A stretch of 64,000 nt of DNA, taken from NCBI GenBank assembly GCA_965216565.1, contig OZ244170.1:2848001-2912000 (forward strand), given 5' to 3'. Within the stretch, counting starts at the first letter, position 1. Each line of letters opens with the position of its first letter. The notes below the pieces were generated by a model that searched no databases, was not told where the DNA came from, and was given only the letters and a program-made list of their open reading frames with translations. The translations under genes were made by a program, and so were the position numbers. This document shows positions 20,940 through 28,177 of the stretch, one piece after another. Source of the DNA: Bythopirellula sp. Lineage in GTDB: Bacteria; Planctomycetota; Planctomycetia; Pirellulales; Lacipirellulaceae.

Positions 20940-23660
20940 CTATGCGAGTCTCGATCTCCGGCGATAACCGAGCAGGCTCACTGCTGCAAAGCTGGCCAAG
21001 AACGCGGTGCCGGGTTCCGGCACGGAGGTAACCGCGGCTACGAGTGGCACGCCCTGGCCGAATTGTTCCTGCCAGATGAGGAAATCGGTGCCGTCCACTT
21101 GCAGGTCGCCGTTGGCGTCGCCGTGGTAGTGTTCGGCGGAGCCGCTGAGGCCGTAGTTGTTTTCCCAGGCAGCCAGGTCGGCGTTGTCGACGTCGCCGTC
21201 TTCGTCGAAGTCGGCCGCGGCGGGACTGGCTACTTGAATCCAGGCGTTGTAGAACGCGATGCCGAAGCTTGCGCCCATTTCTTCATAGTGCGACAGGGGA
21301 CGATTGTTGCCGAACTCGGCTTCGAAGGTGATATCGACCTCCGCATTGAGAAACGCCTCGGCAAAGTTTGCCGAGGTCCAATTGGAACCCGTGGAATCTG
21401 TATCCAAAATGTGTGGCTGGAGATTCTTCAGTTCCACCCAAAAGTCCGCGAGGTTGTCGCCTTGTTCGTATTCGATGAACCCAAAGTCATCGCCGACGCT
21501 TGCGGGAATGGTCGAGTGGAAATCGATGAATGCGTCGACCACCGAGCCAGGGGTCGCTTGCGTATCAGCAATCATCGCTTCGCCATTGACCTTGATGACC
21601 TGGTCGTCAACCCAGAAGGTGGGGTTCCACTGCCCGTTGGGCTCGACCGTGGGGTTTTCCACGGTGCCCCGGTTGTTGCCGGCAAAGCGACCAGCCGCGT
21701 TCATTGTGGGGTAAGCGAAGATCTCGACGTCTTCTCGAAGGCGTGCCGCCCGGGCGTCGTCGGAAATTAGCCAATTGACCATGGCCTCGAAGGTGTGCGT
21801 GCCGAGCACTTCGCCGGCATGCATGCCGGTGGTGATCACAATCTTGCGTTTGGGCGAGGCCGAGTCGGTCGCCGGGTTTGTAATCCGGTAGGCGTAGACG
21901 TCACGCTTGGGGACGAGTCGGCCGAGGTCGTCGGAGTTAAGGGGTGTCTCGCCGATCACACCGTTGGCGTCGCCCGAGAGGGTCGGCTCGGCCCAGGGCG
22001 AGGCGAGCACCTGGGCGGTATGGGCAGACGAGCGTCCGTACGAGTAGGGCTGGGCATAGGCCACGTAGACTACGTCGTCCGTGAAAGCCGAGTTGTTCGA
22101 AAAGGTGTAGAGATTACCGCTGCGATTGGCGTTATCGAAGAACTCCCAGTTTTCGTTATCGTACGAGTAGACCATCTTGTGATTGGTCAGTGCGCCATTG
22201 CCGCCGGCAAAGGGCTGATCAATAGAAAACTGTGGCTGAGCCCCTTGCAAGCCGGTGCCCTCGAAATACATCCATCGCCAGCGATTGCTGCCGTAGTAAT
22301 TGTCGCGACCAACCAGGTCTATGTTGTTCACATCGCCACTCCAGCTCTGGAGCGAACCATGTTCGAAGTTGCCAGTGAGGTTCAGCACGGCATAGGAAGG
22401 TTGGATGACTCCCGCGGCGAGCGTTAGAGCGAGTACGCTGACCACCACATTGCGAAGCGGAAATACCTGCCTACGGGCCGATCGTCTGGCGAACGTCGCT
22501 GCTAATCCACCCGCTACCAGAAGCAGCAATCCAGCGGGCTCCGGCACCTGGGCGGCGTTACTGGAGGAACCACTGAATGGTCCATCCGTCACGCGAACAT
22601 TATCGAATAGGGCGAATGCCAAATTGGGGTCGGTTCCCTGACTAGAAAAGTAATCGACGATGAACAGACCAATCCCACCCTCCAAGCCAACAGGCCGCTC
22701 CTCGCTGTTGATTCCATCGAAGGGATCGTCGGTGACGCTGTTGTCGATCGTTCCCAGCAAGAAGGAACTTCCCGCGGCATGACTCTTGAGAAAAACTTCG
22801 GCAGTACCAAGATTTCCATTGGTGCCATTGCCTGTGGCGTTGGCATCGACTTCGATCATGACCGTCACCCATTGAAAACCCAAGGCTCCAGCTTGATTGG
22901 TACCAGAACTATTCAGACCACCTGTGGCCGCAGAGATATCGATTGCGGGAAAAAGCGCCGCCAGATCGATGTTGCCGTTGCTATCGGAGTGGTTGTAGCC
23001 GGGCCTGTTTCCTGTGCCGAAGTCACTCTCTGCATACTGCCCGCTATCGAGGTCAAGCCTGGCCCCATCCTTGAGCAGGATGTAGTCGCAAATTCCATCG
23101 TCGGAAGAACTGCAACCCGCGCTGCCATCGCCGCTAAATGTGACACCGGCTCCGTTCTGCGCAGGCGTAAAAGTAAACTGCGCGTCGTCGAGATCAAATC
23201 CAGCCGACACCCCAACATGCTCGGTTGTGCCGGAGGCGTCGTAGTTCATCCAAACATCAACCTCCACCGTGTACTGGTCGTCGAAACTGGCGTCTTCGTA
23301 CACAGCTGCCACCTGGTCGCCCGCCCAACCTCCGGGCAGATTTGCCGCGAGCCGCAGTCCCAGCGTGCTCGCATCGTTGGGATCGCTGTTGGGCGCCTCG
23401 GGAATTCCGTAAGCCGAGTAATCGAAACCAAAGTCGGCCGAACTGATATCGGTGCCGTCTGGTTTGTCGGTTCCCCCGAAGTGGGAGTATTGCCAGCCAG
23501 TGCCGGTGCTGAGATCGTCGGAGAAAAGGACTGTCTGGCCATTGGTTCGTTGCGGACCAAATGACATTAGTAAGATCGTCAGCATACTTAGTGCCAACGA
23601 GACTGATCGACAACGCCTGATCCGAAATGGACTTGTCTGACATAAACTTGATCGAAGCAT
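20940..23660 (-). CDS. Two-module surface protein: PEP-CTERM domain + internal signal peptide + M14 zinc carboxypeptidase + dockerin-like repeat + second PEP-CTERM
   Basis: Internal VPEPAGLLLLVAGGLAATFARRSARR; M14 motifs GMHAGE, FIDFHS, TFEAE; ADFDEDGDVDNAD; terminal VPEPGTAFLASFAAVSLLGYRRRSR. Confidence 0.85.
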   Translation of the reverse strand: MLRSSLCQTSPFRIRRCRSVSLALSMLTILLMSFGPQRTNGQTVLFSDDLSTGTGWQYSHFGGTDKPDGTDISSADFGFDYSAYGIPEAPNSDPNDASTLGLRLAANLPGGWAGDQVAAVYEDASFDDQYTVEVDVWMNYDASGTTEHVGVSAGFDLDDAQFTFTPAQNGAGVTFSGDGSAGCSSSDDGICDYILLKDGARLDLDSGQYAESDFGTGNRPGYNHSDSNGNIDLAALFPAIDISAATGGLNSSGTNQAGALGFQWVTVMIEVDANATGNGTNGNLGTAEVFLKSHAAGSSFLLGTIDNSVTDDPFDGINSEERPVGLEGGIGLFIVDYFSSQGTDPNLAFALFDNVRVTDGPFSGSSSNAAQVPEPAGLLLLVAGGLAATFARRSARRQVFPLRNVVVSVLALTLAAGVIQPSYAVLNLTGNFEHGSLQSWSGDVNNIDLVGRDNYYGSNRWRWMYFEGTGLQGAQPQFSIDQPFAGGNGALTNHKMVYSYDNENWEFFDNANRSGNLYTFSNNSAFTDDVVYVAYAQPYSYGRSSAHTAQVLASPWAEPTLSGDANGVIGETPLNSDDLGRLVPKRDVYAYRITNPATDSASPKRKIVITTGMHAGEVLGTHTFEAMVNWLISDDARAARLREDVEIFAYPTMNAAGRFAGNNRGTVENPTVEPNGQWNPTFWVDDQVIKVNGEAMIADTQATPGSVVDAFIDFHSTIPASVGDDFGFIEYEQGDNLADFWVELKNLQPHILDTDSTGSNWTSANFAEAFLNAEVDITFEAEFGNNRPLSHYEEMGASFGIAFYNAWIQVASPAAADFDEDGDVDNADLAAWENNYGLSGSAEHYHGDANGDLQVDGTDFLIWQEQFGQGVPLVAAVTSVPEPGTAFLASFAAVSLLGYRRRSRLA

Positions 23661-23889: not shown

Positions 23890-24858
23890 CTACTTGGCCC
23901 CGGTAAGCTTCACCGCAAACCAACCCGCCAAGGGATCGATCCACCGACGCACGGTGTTGGGTGAGATGAAAGACAGATTGGCAATGATCATGACTAAGCC
24001 AAAGGTGATCATCCCCATAAATAGCGCGATACCGCCGTGGACAAATACGGCCATCCACAGCACCAGCGGTCGGCTGTATCGATTCCAAATCAGGAAACAA
24101 TAGAACAATTCCCAGAAAACCGTGGCATGCGTGGCCAGGGCCACTAGCACAGGCCAGTTGCCAAGCCAGGTCATGTCGAGCGATTGGTACTCGTAGTTGG
24201 CAACCGCCCACCAGACCGCCGTGCCCGCTTGCCAATTCTCGCCGCTGAGTTTTGCCATGCCCGAGAAAAGGTAAATGATACACAAATGTAATTGAATCAA
24301 CCGAATCGCCACGGTCGCCCAGGTGCTGGGTAGCGCGGGCCCCGTATCGCCGCGCCGCAACCGACGAATGCGATCGACCGAGTACCGCGCCCCACACGGG
24401 CCGAGCATCAGGTACATCGCGAGAAGACAGTTGATCTTATCGAGCCCGAAAAACGCGCCTGGGCTGACCCGATGAGCGTAGCTCACTGCAAACAAGAATG
24501 CCAACACCGACATGGGCCGACTGAATAGACCGATCATCAGACAGAAAAAAACAAGCAACGCAATAATGTGAACAGTCCACAGTAGCCAAGTCGATTCGAT
24601 CCAAAAGAACAGACTCCACACCGACCATTCGTTTTGGTGCACTTGCTCGCGGAGATACTCGACCGGCAACCAACCCTGAGGGCCCAGAAAGGCTTCCAAA
24701 TCTAGCGACCACACTAGATGCGTATAAAACAGCATACCCCCGGCTAGCAGACGAATCAGTGACAACGTCGCCGGATCGCTGGGCTTGAACCAGAAACGAT
24801 TCCAAGCGTCCCAAGCATCGACTATGTAGTCTCGCACATCACCGAAGACCGCCTTCAT
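23890..24858 (-). CDS. HTTM-domain membrane protein (SdpB / vitamin K-dependent gamma-carboxylase-like)
   Basis: WNRFWF.P..P.TL..IR, LMIGLFSR, YSVD, IRLIQLHLCIIYLFSGMAKL.GENW..G, H.GI...MG...F. Start MKAVFG overlaps the upstream stop (ATGA). Confidence 0.85.
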   Translation of the reverse strand: MKAVFGDVRDYIVDAWDAWNRFWFKPSDPATLSLIRLLAGGMLFYTHLVWSLDLEAFLGPQGWLPVEYLREQVHQNEWSVWSLFFWIESTWLLWTVHIIALLVFFCLMIGLFSRPMSVLAFLFAVSYAHRVSPGAFFGLDKINCLLAMYLMLGPCGARYSVDRIRRLRRGDTGPALPSTWATVAIRLIQLHLCIIYLFSGMAKLSGENWQAGTAVWWAVANYEYQSLDMTWLGNWPVLVALATHATVFWELFYCFLIWNRYSRPLVLWMAVFVHGGIALFMGMITFGLVMIIANLSFISPNTVRRWIDPLAGWFAVKLTGAK

Positions 24859-25589
24859 TGCTGGCCTCCTGGGATGGCGACGGCAGACTCCGCTTGCGCG
24901 GGCGAACTCTCGGGCCGAGGCCTGCCCTGAAGCGTCGCAATCACTTGATAGGTGGAGGGTGTGTTGAGCGGCGTCTCTTCTTGGACCCGTTGAGGATCGA
25001 GCAAGAAATGGATCAGCCATTCCATGCGGCTGGGTCCCCCGTGAACCGTGGCCAGGTGGTCGGCATAGTTTTGGCCCGACTCGCGTCCCATCATTTCCGT
25101 TTGCTCGGCGAGCATCATATGTCGGTGGTAAAACAGCCGCGGCCACTGTTGCTCGAGGTTGGGGAATTCACCTTCGATTTGCTCGCCCGCGGGAGTCGAC
25201 ACACGGTAGCGAATGATGTGAGTCCCCGCTGGATCGGGAGCAAAGAATTCGTAACCGTGATTCAGATAAGCCAGGTTTAAATAGTGCCGAAAGAACTTGT
25301 GCAGTTCTTCGGTCACGAGGGGTCGCTGCCAAATGGCGCTGTCGTTGGCGGGAATCTGTGGCTGGCCTGGCGGAGGGACGTAACCGGGCGGCAACGCCGG
25401 GCCGACTGATAAATTCCAAGGAGCAGAGACAATGGCGACCAGATGCAAAACAACCAACAGACTCACCAGCAGCCGCCATGCTACGTGCCAAGGCATGCTG
25501 GGATTAACGCGTTTCGGCTTAGCTTTCGGTTTGGCAGCCGGCTGCTTTTCCGGTGGCGAAGTTGGGTTGTCTTGCCTCTTTTTTGACAT
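24855..25589 (-). CDS. Single-TM exported protein, SdpA/DUF5819-like HTTM partner
   Basis: Basic N-terminus, TM ending in LVVLHLVAI, motif NHGYEFFAPDP (resembles the W/Y-x-F-F-A-P-x-P motif of HTTM partners); coupled to the HTTM gene. Confidence 0.6.
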   Translation of the reverse strand: MSKKRQDNPTSPPEKQPAAKPKAKPKRVNPSMPWHVAWRLLVSLLVVLHLVAIVSAPWNLSVGPALPPGYVPPPGQPQIPANDSAIWQRPLVTEELHKFFRHYLNLAYLNHGYEFFAPDPAGTHIIRYRVSTPAGEQIEGEFPNLEQQWPRLFYHRHMMLAEQTEMMGRESGQNYADHLATVHGGPSRMEWLIHFLLDPQRVQEETPLNTPSTYQVIATLQGRPRPESSPAQAESAVAIPGGQQ

Positions 25590-25648
25590 GGGAGTAGCTT
25601 GGCGACGAGGCAAGAATAGGGGTTCAGGGCGAGTTGCGAGCCTATAGC

Positions 25649-25689
25649 AAAAGAAAAACCCCCGCACCGGTCAACACCGATACGGGGGG
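25649..25689 (-). terminator. Rho-independent terminator after the TIGR03000-type gene
   Basis: Minus strand: CCCCGTATCGGT-GTTG-ACCGGTGCGGGG followed by TTTTTCTTTT. Confidence 0.8.
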
Positions 25690-25729
25690 ATATGAAAATC
25701 GACCGCAAACCTAATCTTCCAATGGGGCT

Positions 25730-26719
25730 TTATCTGTCCAATTGGGCAATTTGGGTTGGGGCCGCTGTGTCGAAGCTAAACGCTAGCTCGTAGTTCTTGC
25801 CGCCTATGATCTTGAGATCTTGCTCACGAACCAAGGTCTTGCCGTCTCGCTCGAGCTCGACACGTATTTGGTACCCGTCCCAAGACTCACCCGCTTTGAG
25901 CTGAGTGGTGGTATAGGTCCGCTGCGCGCCAGTTTGCTTGGTCTGGCTACCCAGCAAGTAAACTTTGGCCTTTGCCGGGACGTCGACTGTCAGCTTGGTT
26001 TCGACAGGCTCGGTTTCCTCGGCGATGGCGGTTGCTTCTTGGGTTTCGCCAAACGACAGCGGAATCACGTCGCCTGCGCTGAGCTGCACAACCTTCTCTT
26101 CAGTCACAGCATCTTGGCCTGCTGGCTTGTAGGTGACCTCGAACTTATAGGTATAAGTCATGCCAGACTTCAAACCACGCGATACATAGCTGCGCTCCGA
26201 GCCAGTGCTCTTGGTTGGAGTATCGTTTACAACAACGGTCGCACCCTCGGGCACTTGGACTTTGATCGTCGCTGTGCTGTCGGCGGAACTGCTGCTAGCA
26301 GATGCGTAGGATGTGGTGTTTGAACTGCTGGATGCGTAATGGGAATGCGACGAAGAATAATACGTCGAAGCGTAACTACCATGCGATCCGTAGCCACCAT
26401 GGCTGCCGGCAGATCCATAGCTCACCGAACCGTGACTACCATAGCTGCCATAGCTCGCGCTGGAACCGTGGCTGCCATAAGAACCGTGCGAATGCCGGGC
26501 GGCACGTCGAGCACGAATTCTGGCGAACAGCCCCATTCGTCCATGGCTGCCGTGGCTGCCATAGCTCGCGCTGGAACCGGAACTGCCGTAGCTGCCATAG
26601 CTCCCCGAGGACCCCCAACTTCCGTAAGACCAAGCCATAGCGTCGGTACCAACCAATGCCACTACTAATCCTGGCACAATAGCCAACGCCAACTGCCTGC
26701 AAGTTCTTGCGACTTTCAT
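25730..26719 (-). CDS. Secreted protein with (G/A)-S-X repeat region and two TIGR03000-type Planctomycete domains
   Basis: RBS CAGGAG; signal peptide ending AMA; GSYGSHGS repeats; two copies of V.VP..A.V......T..TG..R.Y....L..G..Y.Y. Confidence 0.85.
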   Translation of the reverse strand: MKVARTCRQLALAIVPGLVVALVGTDAMAWSYGSWGSSGSYGSYGSSGSSASYGSHGSHGRMGLFARIRARRAARHSHGSYGSHGSSASYGSYGSHGSVSYGSAGSHGGYGSHGSYASTYYSSSHSHYASSSSNTTSYASASSSSADSTATIKVQVPEGATVVVNDTPTKSTGSERSYVSRGLKSGMTYTYKFEVTYKPAGQDAVTEEKVVQLSAGDVIPLSFGETQEATAIAEETEPVETKLTVDVPAKAKVYLLGSQTKQTGAQRTYTTTQLKAGESWDGYQIRVELERDGKTLVREQDLKIIGGKNYELAFSFDTAAPTQIAQLDR

Positions 26720-26926
26720 CTGTCTCTCCTGAAAAAACACTATGTCTAGAGTGGTACGAGTCTCCCTACTGAGCATTACGATAGCAGCCCGGGCCCGTAA
26801 TTCAAGTAAGCTGCGCAATTTTGTCCTGATTTGGCGACTAGGGGGTTTGCAAGTGAAAAATAGGGCTGAGAAAACCTGACCGCATCCAGAGCTAGCTAGG
26901 GCCTCTAGGCCACTCTGCCCCCTGGT

Positions 26927-28177
26927 TCAATGTCCAGACTGAATTGGTTCCAACCGCACCGCATCAATATCCAGTCGTCCCGTCCCGCCTTGGAGCCCAA
27001 GCCGGACTATGGCCTCGCGAGTGGCTGGAGGAACGCGGAGTACTTCTCGCGTTTTGGTCCAGGAAAACGATCCTTCCCATTTGCCGAGACGGCGGTTTTC
27101 GATCACCGCGCGGCGGCCGTCGAAAAACGCGATTTGTAAGCAAGGCCGATCACCAGTGAACAGTCCTGGCTTGAGGTTGCGCCCTCGTGCGGTGGAGGAG
27201 ATTTCGATTTCGCGCACCTCACGGCCATCAATCGCCAAGCCTTGCAGGGCACGGCTAGCGCGTCCCGGCTCGTTGGATTTGAACGTCAGGTAGCGTTTGC
27301 CGTGGGGGGCATCGTTCTGCGAGACCTTTGCATCGCGTAGATAATGCCAACCAACGGGAAGGAGTGCGTCGTTCTCGTTCTCATTTAAAACTTGCTCGAA
27401 GCTGCCGTTGACGATTGCTGGTTTCGTCGGATCGGGAATCACCTGGCGAGCGTCTTCGGCCGCACCCGTCATCGGCACGAATAGCGTGGCCTGAAGCACC
27501 TCTCGCGTGAGCTTGCCATTGCGTTTTGTGACCCGATAAAGATTCTGTTGGTAACGCTCGCCCACTGGGATGATCAACTGCCCGCCTTCTTTGAGTTGTT
27601 CAACTAGCGCCGGCGGAATACTCTCGGGGGAGCAGGTGACGATAATCTTGTCGAACGGTGCCGCCTCGGGCCAACCGGCAAAGCCATCGCCGACGCGAAC
27701 CTGAACATTGTCGTAGCCCAGCGATTTCAATTTTCGCTCGGCGCGCTTTCCCAGGCTCTCGACGATTTCGATGGTGTACACCTCGTTGACCAAAGGGCTC
27801 AAGATCGCCGCTTGATAACCGCTGCCGGTGCCGATCTCCAGCACGCGATCGTCCGGTTGCGGATCAAGCTGCTCAGTCATGTAAGCGACGATGTAGGGTG
27901 GCGAGATCGTCTGTTGGTCACCAATCGGCAAGGCAACGTCTTGATAGGCCAGATGACGGAAGCCGCCGGGCACAAATTTGTGACGCGGCGTTGCTCGAAC
28001 CGCAGCCAGAACGCGGGGGTCGTTGACGCCTGCCCCTGCGATTTCCTCCCGCACCATTTGCTCGCGCTGCTGGGCGAAGTTTTCGGCTTTGCCAGAACTT
28101 GCCGAACAAATAATTAAGAGCATGGCCGCTAAACCGCAAGCGATCGTCGACCTGTTAATCCCAATATCGCGATTCAT
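26927..28177 (-). CDS. pcm: Protein-L-isoaspartate(D-aspartate) O-methyltransferase with signal peptide and C-terminal CBM-like domain
   Basis: PRHKFVP, AYQDVALPIG..QTISPPY, VLEIGTGSGYQAA, GDGFAGWPEAAPFDKIIVT, FVPM; C-terminal IVNGSFE...GW domain. Confidence 0.9.
   Translation of the reverse strand: MNRDIGINRSTIACGLAAMLLIICSASSGKAENFAQQREQMVREEIAGAGVNDPRVLAAVRATPRHKFVPGGFRHLAYQDVALPIGDQQTISPPYIVAYMTEQLDPQPDDRVLEIGTGSGYQAAILSPLVNEVYTIEIVESLGKRAERKLKSLGYDNVQVRVGDGFAGWPEAAPFDKIIVTCSPESIPPALVEQLKEGGQLIIPVGERYQQNLYRVTKRNGKLTREVLQATLFVPMTGAAEDARQVIPDPTKPAIVNGSFEQVLNENENDALLPVGWHYLRDAKVSQNDAPHGKRYLTFKSNEPGRASRALQGLAIDGREVREIEISSTARGRNLKPGLFTGDRPCLQIAFFDGRRAVIENRRLGKWEGSFSWTKTREVLRVPPATREAIVRLGLQGGTGRLDIDAVRLEPIQSGH

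Follow-up and report, generated by a model that had tools for sequence, protein, structure and literature searches.

A two-protein membrane system linked to exported Gly/Ser repeat proteins in Planctomycetia suggests an undescribed protein modification outside the cytoplasm

Introduction

In a 64,000-nucleotide window of a Bythopirellula sp. genome (contig OZ244170.1, positions 2,848,001 to 2,912,000; the window is this whole stretch of analysed DNA), the gene of an exported repeat protein, P0001 (25730-26719, 329 residues), stands ahead of the genes of a protein with a single transmembrane (TM) segment, P0002 (24855-25589, 244 residues), and of a membrane protein of the HTTM type, P0003 (23890-24858, 322 residues). 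As a preliminary description of the locus had stated, the three genes are co-directional, all lying on the minus strand, as do the other features of the window located below, and the last two are translationally coupled, the P0003 start overlapping the P0002 stop as ATGA. The closest named relatives come from Bythopirellula and other Pirellulales records. The locus raises the question of whether the P0002-P0003 pair modifies the repeat protein, at which residues, and by what kind of chemistry. Here, comparative analysis across the class Planctomycetia suggests a widespread and so far undescribed enzyme that chemically alters exported repeats outside the cytoplasm.

Results

P0001 is the presumed substrate. 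It has a single N-terminal hydrophobic stretch (residues 10-28, a hydropathy peak) ending in AMA before a Trp, and a signal peptide is predicted at residues 1-29 (26633-26719), probably cleaved after AMA, judging by an A-x-A pattern that recurs in homologues. Two blocks of [GAV]-S-[YHWS] triads follow, the first with 9 triads (residues 30-61; 26537-26632) and the second with 10 (residues 76-117; 26369-26494), around the basic spacer GLFARIRARRAAR; after these come a Ser-rich linker and two TIGR03000 domains, at 26051-26275 (E 3.3e-20) and 25781-26002 (E 2.1e-16). The search with this model thereby confirmed the domains that had been named earlier (E 3e-37; 126.4 bits versus a cut-off of 43.1). 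The spacer lies at residues 62-75 (26495-26536; MGLFARIRARRAAR). Homologues of the Ser type, of the Cys type, and without the enzyme all retain a basic spacer, a loose pattern being found in 44 of 70, 15 of 16, and 5 of 5 of them, respectively.

Among 54 homologues, lag-3 autocorrelation reached 0.58 for Ser and 0.56 for Gly, with only 0.08-0.23 at lags 1-2, and the motif [YWHF][GA]S[SATGYH]G[SG] occurred 537 times, versus a mean of 12 and a maximum of 24 in 200 shuffles; consequently, the three-residue period exceeds chance. Within its own genome, P0001 is the sole TIGR03000 gene and the sole open reading frame (ORF) with at least four G[SC]xG[GS] motifs. The unit seen throughout the class is G-S-x-G, in chains of the form (GSY)n or (GSSG)n; strict triads therefore belong to the own family in particular, and the wider motif is small-[Ser/Cys]-x-small. 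The TIGR03000 part of P0001 falls in unnamed protein-atlas clusters (0.92-0.93), the nearest named family being PEGA at 0.75, which is a lead only. No description of TIGR03000 or of the present system was found in the literature covered, which includes the available parts of PMC10849128, PMC9927463, PMC10125368, PMC10406935, and 10.1101/2020.07.09.196543; supplements fall outside this scope, and planctomycete proteome or transposon tables could hold the genes.

Conservation of the three-gene neighbourhood, on which the preliminary description had made its proposal depend, was observed at several levels. In an even sample of the class (201 genomes), TIGR03000 was present in 119 genomes and the P0002-type partner in 156, and among the 49 other genomes of the own order they were present in 49 and 43, respectively. 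The partner adjoined a P0003 homologue in 71 of 73 fetched loci, and a TIGR03000 repeat gene lay upstream in 57 of the 69 with enough upstream room, four having been excluded for having too little. When a close enzyme clade was defined (78 loci from other genomes, with partner E<1e-38), 70 carried a co-directional G-S repeat gene upstream, 56 with TIGR03000 and 14 without; the latter are nothing but a signal peptide plus repeats (71-170 residues). Furthermore, all five genomes with an unlinked pair that were checked (G256, G168, G304, G134, and G310) encoded a repeat gene elsewhere. As side observations, the pair at L158 and L211 (genomes G202 and G330) is preceded by two repeat genes in tandem, of which one is short and the other has a divergent TIGR03000 domain, and genomes of family f82 carry 2-12 TIGR03000 matches with mostly one partner gene.

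The pair is absent from family f71 of the own order, whose genomes are 98-99% complete: TIGR03000 was found in 6/6, the partner in 0/6, and HTTM in 0/5. Five f71 TIGR03000 proteins contained no repeat motif, as compared with medians of 20 in the 70 Ser-type and 12 in the 16 Cys-type proteins. They retain the signal peptide and a basic spacer, GPVRRLL, which occurs in Ser-type proteins as well, and carry irregular Cys/Tyr/Trp sequence (12% Cys) in place of the repeats. This loss is an argument that the repeats depend on the pair, and that serving the enzyme is not the sole purpose of either TIGR03000 or the spacer. TIGR03000 is missing from 14 of the 70 linked repeat genes and occurs in f71 without pair and repeats, so that the constant partner of the pair is the repeat and not TIGR03000. 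The same two counts, with five f71 genomes tested, give no support to the idea that TIGR03000 domains act as recognition or follower modules.

Twenty-five loci were hand-picked from about 128 weaker partner matches, and 17 of them carried a divergent gene with SCYSSCY, GCYG, or SCHGG repeats. These Cys-type proteins have a spacer of GGLF plus basic residues and an N-terminal leader unlike that of the Ser type. The residue before aromatic-[GSA] was Ser in 454 cases among the 70 Ser-type proteins, and Cys in 154 versus Ser in 13 cases among the 16 Cys-type proteins; Cys occupies the same triad position in the Ser-type proteins of L205 and L228, and both forms occur in genomes G233, G285, and G293. 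Together with the autocorrelation, these counts bear out the expectation that homologues keep Ser or Cys at the periodic position. In the Ser-type repeats Cys makes up 0.3% of residues, and repeat composition is further marked by 0.1% Glu, 0.4% Asp, and 1% Thr. Conserved uncharged leaders, MQGT[IV]VMLMAL... and MY[SG].VL..A..., were noted in Cys-repeat proteins divergent from the pair (L235-L247, L163-L167, and L251-L253), and two Cys-repeat proteins had no match in NCBIfam.

For P0003, the HTTM label given earlier stands by its fold, its Lys motif (YLFSGMAKL, present as claimed), and its homologues, and not by a direct match, P0003 itself having matched nothing in Pfam, nor PF05090 at E<=0.1. 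Eighteen of 55 homologues matched PF05090, and the predicted model (pLDDT, the predicted local distance difference test, 90.9) matched only GGCX in Foldseek at E<=0.001 (15 chains; E 4e-7, TM-score ~0.64). A profile of 28 diverse relatives matched human GGCX at E 9e-26; against the PDB, profile A1 gave no match and the broader profile A3 matched GGCX. Membership in HTTM follows from the homologue matches, the fold, and the GGCX profile match. No second copy was found in the own genome.

The GGCX residues K218, W223, D263, H287, and F299 correspond to K203, W209, E250, H274, and F286 of P0003, all invariant in 55 close homologues, as is R36. GGCX N159-H160-S161 corresponds to G138-L139-D140, with D140 invariant, and the N290 position is Ile. 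In GGCX, N159 and H160 bind the Glu carboxylate and are required for activity, according to the available part of PMC12647623. As read from these alignments, P0003 retains the base without the glutamate site, since the K218 equivalent is kept and N159/H160 are replaced. At the position of G138-D140, GGD is found in an SdpB protein above the cut-off, GSD in a LinG-like protein, and NHF in a fused GGCX-like protein. The equivalents of K, W, H, and F are also kept in SdpB and the LinG-like protein and so are not carboxylase markers.

Phylogenies were built by maximum likelihood for 40 HTTM proteins and by FastTree for 79. In the former, support by the Shimodaira-Hasegawa-like approximate likelihood ratio test (SH-aLRT) was 99 for the Ser clade, 95 for Ser plus one Cys clade, and 85 for the whole planctomycete group, which is sister to SdpB and DUF5819-linked HTTM proteins (joint clade, 98.7). 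The fused GGCX-like protein (L110:5014-6408, genome G034), from the same phylum, carries PF05090 and PF22777 with the N-H motif intact, and falls far outside the planctomycete clade.

P0002 has one TM segment (residues 36-54) and, as had been reported, carries YEFFAPDP, within HGYEFFAPDP at residues 111-120; WPRLFYHRH is a further motif. It matched nothing in Pfam or NCBIfam and lies in unnamed protein-atlas clusters (0.92-0.94). Its HGYEFFAPDP aligns with W-x-[LF]-F-A-P-x-P of DUF5819, SdpA, and LinL-like proteins from plasmid records, and a profile-profile comparison (hhalign) of the partner family with these proteins gave a probability of 76% and E 2e-5, a remote relation; single-sequence hhalign of A2 against SdpA, LinL-like, and GGCX-like lumenal parts was weak. 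The earlier SdpA designation did not carry over to the curated model, TIGR04034 matching in 0 of 61 genomes while its Bacillus subtilis control matched. The GGCX lumenal domain (PF22777) was not matched by any of 57 partner proteins. Modelled alone (pLDDT 83.9), P0002 has as its best VIA match (Z 6.4; 56 residues, root-mean-square deviation 2.1) an unrelated phage protein.

In co-folding, the P0002-P0003 heterodimer was modelled with a score of 0.92, the best control reaching 0.00; the mark is reached by 116 of 157 solved versus 2 of 215 mismatched pairs. Runs agreed in 98% of contacts, with a partner pLDDT of 86, and the predicted interface joins residues 132-141 and 198-203 of the HTTM protein to 111-123 and 150-160 of the partner, whose conserved motifs contact the G-L-D loop and the K203 region. 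The model supports, without showing, a composite active site of both proteins, and its pass may stem from likeness to solved GGCX. Taken together, the motif alignments, the profile match, and the co-fold lend support to a two-protein membrane enzyme of the SdpAB/LinGL kind, an SdpA/SdpB-like pair having been named earlier. Action outside the cytoplasm, likewise part of the preliminary description, is supported by the P0001 signal peptide and the basic N-terminal tail of P0002 before its single TM segment, from which we infer the topology.

Discussion

We propose that P0002 and P0003 together would make up a single membrane enzyme, a GGCX-like protein split in two, whose active site faces the periplasm. 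P0001 would be exported via its signal peptide, and its unstructured small-[Ser/Cys]-x-small repeats would thread successively through the enzyme, where Lys203, the equivalent of GGCX Lys218, may abstract the C-alpha proton with Asp140 or Glu250 as partner acid. Reprotonation from the opposite face would yield D-residues, an outcome that we hold to be less likely than not, and loss of the beta hydroxyl or thiol would yield dehydroalanine able to cross-link, to which we give a somewhat smaller chance. TIGR03000 domains would be cargo for assembly or anchoring, dispensable for modification. Covalent action of the pair on the repeat protein is probable; if so, chemistry at the C-alpha is the favoured kind, and the whole proposal of a periplasm-facing split GGCX that removes C-alpha protons in these repeats, giving D-residues and/or dehydroalanine, is about evenly balanced between right and wrong. 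The C-alpha mechanism is put forward because the Lys is kept together with a new invariant Asp, because Ser and Cys switch between small residues, and because linaridins offer a precedent. Base-catalysed racemisation and beta-elimination affect Ser and Cys more readily than other residues. CypH and CypL, in work of Xue from 2023, reportedly epimerise, dehydrate, and dethiolate jointly. Furthermore, linaridins contain many D-residues, grmL/sinL being indispensable and the proposed epimerase (PMC10373908 and PMC9811515, in their available parts), and Dha19 of cypemycin arises by direct dethiolation of Cys (PMC10880069, likewise in part). Thr-derived dehydrobutyrine is unlikely, given 1% Thr in the repeats.

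Several observations weigh against this reading. No modified product has been seen, and the nearest characterised relative, SdpAB, is described as needed for SdpC processing, with no chemistry given, in the available part of PMC6818787. The P0002 model alone had no Foldseek match at E<=0.001, and so none to GGCX, and the P0002 profile did not match the one GGCX-like lumenal domain compared. Nor is the linaridin precedent close, the LinG-like protein being distant (tblastn E 8e-4; hhalign probability 14%) and placed on a long unresolved branch, not as sister group of the planctomycete HTTM proteins; its cluster (L174) is called linaridin-like from gene order and not from a curated model; no LinE alpha/beta hydrolase was found among the neighbours scanned; and linaridins dehydrate Thr, a Ser-derived, Dha-rich linaridin having no precedent as of 2020 in the part of the literature available. 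As for linkage, 12 of 69 loci lack a TIGR03000 gene (considering the locus only), 8 of 78 close-clade loci lack an adjacent repeat gene (one at a contig end), and 8 of 25 distant-group loci have no repeat gene nearby; because the sampled genomes are related, their counts lack independence, and the joint loss in f71 is a single event in a single lineage. Finally, unrelated proteins, and genomes that lack the pair, also contain GSSGG runs as spacers (L264, L266, L267, L271, and L276). In genome G222, where the pair was not found, L271:1261-1662 is the gene of a short GSSGGSSGG peptide that is secreted and whose N-terminus is very similar.

The peptide of G222 ends in what we take to be a VPEID-like sorting tail (VPEID...TM...basic), unmatched in NCBIfam, and we guess that the large membrane protein gene just after it encodes an exosortase. 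In the follow-up of four pair-negative genomes, this peptide was the exception, the rest being spacers or chance matches. Genome-wide repeat scans had limits of their own: repeat profile A6 matched 12 of 201 genomes and missed known positives, and a repeat DNA pattern matched 97 of 201, with background matches and matches to Thr/Cys codons among them; in family f3 it matched 10 of 15 genomes with the pair and 8 of 33 without it.

The system is most readily compared with SdpABC/YitPOM and the DUF5819 plus HTTM operons, which also set a single-TM partner and an HTTM protein beside a secreted-protein gene; it shares with SdpAB/DUF5819 pairs the G-x-D and Lys motifs, the partner motif W/Y-x-[LF]-F-A-P-x-P, and a sister position in the tree. 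The layout of a secreted protein, a DUF5819-like protein, and an HTTM protein is in itself common, as plasmid loci illustrate. Unlike SdpABC, P0003 scores below the SdpB model TIGR04033 (49.6 versus 178.4 bits), and in place of a hydrophobic toxin peptide the substrate is a repeat protein of Gly/Ser(Cys) that often has folded domains; no SdpC-family toxin or SdpI-type immunity match was found for P0001 or the scanned neighbours, and the window holds no immunity or DUF393 gene. In addition, SdpABC is patchy, in contrast to the 43 of 49 sampled genomes of the order given above. On a Streptomyces plasmid, an ice-binding family gene stands directly before a DUF5819 plus HTTM pair (L170:1690-4879), a possible folded secreted substrate.

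Could the pair be only a helper of export, folding, or redox state, a membrane chaperone or a site of quinone-linked thiol chemistry that leaves no lasting covalent change on Ser? We regard this as unlikely. It would suit the DCC1-like/DUF393 thiol-disulfide genes that adjoin or fuse with related plasmid HTTM genes, the weak DoxD, DoxX, and MauE matches of P0003 homologues, the existence of Cys-type substrates, the 12% Cys of the enzyme-less f71 proteins, and the description of SdpAB only as a processing requirement in the source cited above. Ser-type repeats, with their 0.3% Cys, have nothing to oxidise, however; the invariant Lys/Asp/Glu/His set suits catalysis, and a TIGR03000 protein with a signal peptide is still encoded in f71, where the pair is missing.

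A little less probable is quinol/O2 chemistry in the manner of GGCX, in which Lys203 would activate a quinol and the strong base so formed would act on a different C-H, whereby Gly would be carboxylated to aminomalonate, or Ser/Cys oxidised to formylglycine. The membrane domain shares the fold of GGCX and MloH and has equivalents of K218, D263, W223, H287, and F299; those of K218, D263, W223, and the CO2-pocket F299 are invariant (roles from PMC12647623, in its available part, which also reports that MloH, a bacterial GGCX orthologue, carboxylates Asp). The system differs from GGCX in its two genes, its lack of a PF22777 match, its almost Glu-free substrate, and the replacement of N290 and of N159/H160, the latter needed for carboxylase activity. 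Moreover, K, W, H, and F are no sign of a carboxylase, SdpB and the LinG-like protein having them as well, the repeats hold little Asp or Glu (0.4% and 0.1%), and the true GGCX-like fused protein lies far outside the clade. Carboxylation of Glu in particular is hardly credible, and the Glu-rich linker proposed earlier is not supported as a target: the Glu-binding residues of GGCX are replaced, 29 of 56 homologues have only 0-1 Glu in the linker, and no linker is present in the short substrates.

Transfer of a sugar, acyl group, or phospho-ester from a lipid-linked donor to the Ser hydroxyl or Cys thiol is improbable. Interchange of Ser and Cys at one position is what nucleophile acceptors would show, and the enzyme sits in the membrane; no transferase fold was matched, though, and no donor genes stand beside the pair in the inspected loci. 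We know of no case of lipid-donor group transfer by HTTM proteins.

Inherited synteny, with the repeats as plain flexible spacers and the pair acting on something else, appears more doubtful still. The upstream protein-L-isoaspartate O-methyltransferase (PIMT) gene is a frequent neighbour too, in 46 of 73 related loci, without any evident link, the pair is unlinked in some genomes, and the GSSGG spacers mentioned above occur apart from it. Against synteny stand the linkage in two arrangements (co-directional for Ser, divergent for Cys), with and without TIGR03000, the genomes with both systems (G233, G285, and G293), the 14 substrates that are only signal peptide and repeats, and the joint loss of repeats and pair in f71.

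Modification of the repeats in the cytoplasm by another enzyme of peptides made on the ribosome and modified after translation, as YcaO azoles at Gly-Ser/Gly-Cys in the manner of microcin B17 or radical S-adenosylmethionine (SAM) cross-links at His/Tyr/Trp-Gly-Ser of the kind proposed for His-Xaa-Ser proteins, the pair acting otherwise, is very improbable: the H/Y/W-G-S and G-S/G-C repeats of a Gly-rich precursor do recall the His-Xaa-Ser system and microcin B17 with its GSCG site (PMC10373908, in its available part), and P0001 matches HxsA4 (NF038313) at 40.6 bits, but this is below the cut-off of 55, YcaO (PF02624) was found in none of 5 genomes bearing the pair, against 5 of 14 in the control, the radical SAM model TIGR03978, the one Hxs enzyme model searched, was not found in the own genome, which is 94% complete, against 10 of 14 in the control, many substrates consist of GSSGGS runs and hold few aromatics, and they carry signal peptides.

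The proposed C-alpha chemistry has its model in linaridins, whose LinG(H)/LinL proteins (CypH/CypL, GrmL, and SinL) likewise combine an HTTM protein with a small membrane-anchored partner, share K, W, H, F, and G-x-D, and act on beta-hydroxy or thiol residues with formation of D-residues; FFAPDP is present in the LinL-like protein of L174, the sequence likeness to LinG/LinL being only remote and to an uncurated cluster. Unlike linaridin loci, the adjoining genes include no LinE hydrolase, LinM, LinD, or transporter, and the substrate has a Sec-type signal in place of a PxxxTP leader and is Ser/Cys-rich and Thr-poor. The L174 cluster itself (L174:3464-6416, Streptomyces californicus plasmid) is unannotated and encodes a 58-residue Thr/Ala/Val-rich precursor, an HTTM protein, an alpha/beta hydrolase, and a LinL-like protein. 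The present system works like SdpAB/LinGL but, on the features tested, belongs to none of the Sdp, linaridin, carboxylase, His-Xaa-Ser, and azole systems. New are the repeats as substrate, the switch between Ser and Cys in them, their spread across the class, and the link to TIGR03000.

The substrates are simple, repetitive, signal-peptide-bearing proteins, some of them only 70-170 residues long; nature also supplies a switch between Ser and Cys and a lineage that has lost the enzyme, and consequently the chemistry can be tested by mass spectrometry and chiral amino-acid analysis. If the proposal is true, a common modification of planctomycete envelope proteins would be at hand, with the partner in 156 of 201 class genomes; GGCX, SdpAB, and the linaridin enzymes would be joined in one mechanistic family; the product, unlike an antibiotic peptide, would be a structural protein rich in D-amino acids or cross-linked to itself; and the enzyme would serve as a portable tool for rewriting any G-S-x-G tag on a secreted protein. 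A structural role of the mature protein at the surface or in the periplasm is a guess, made because the enzyme-less and Cys forms look built for cross-linking. The full picture for most Planctomycetia, in which dozens of Ser/Cys of a housekeeping envelope protein become D-residues or dehydroalanine cross-links by a periplasmic split GGCX-fold enzyme using neither ATP nor SAM, is speculative, and we would put it at roughly one chance in three or slightly below.

Other features of the window

P0001 is preceded by a Shine-Dalgarno-like AGGAG (26726-26730), 6 nucleotides before its start, and is separated from P0002 by a hairpin resembling an intrinsic terminator (25649-25688, or 25659-25688 as listed by the scan; 13 pairs, 9 of them G-C, with a U-tract), a consensus match only in a scan that gave 7 such sites versus 6.9 expected. 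P0003 has its own AGGAGG site, 6 nucleotides ahead of its start, so that the strength of ribosome-binding sites is no proof of low-level P0003.

The upstream neighbour PIMT (26927-28174) has about 175 extra C-terminal residues and a signal-peptide-like N-terminus, and an exported SAM-dependent repair enzyme would be odd. It is probably no member of the system: it remains where the pair is lost, as in f71 genome G156 (L147), where it still precedes the TIGR03000 gene, and the repeats are without Asp/Asn.

Beyond P0003, a 906-residue ORF (20940-23660) carries one PEP-CTERM motif in mid-frame (residues 371-397) and a second at its end. The mid-frame motif is followed by a second signal-like stretch, an M14 carboxypeptidase, and a dockerin-like part, and the ORF looks like two PEP-CTERM proteins in a single frame.

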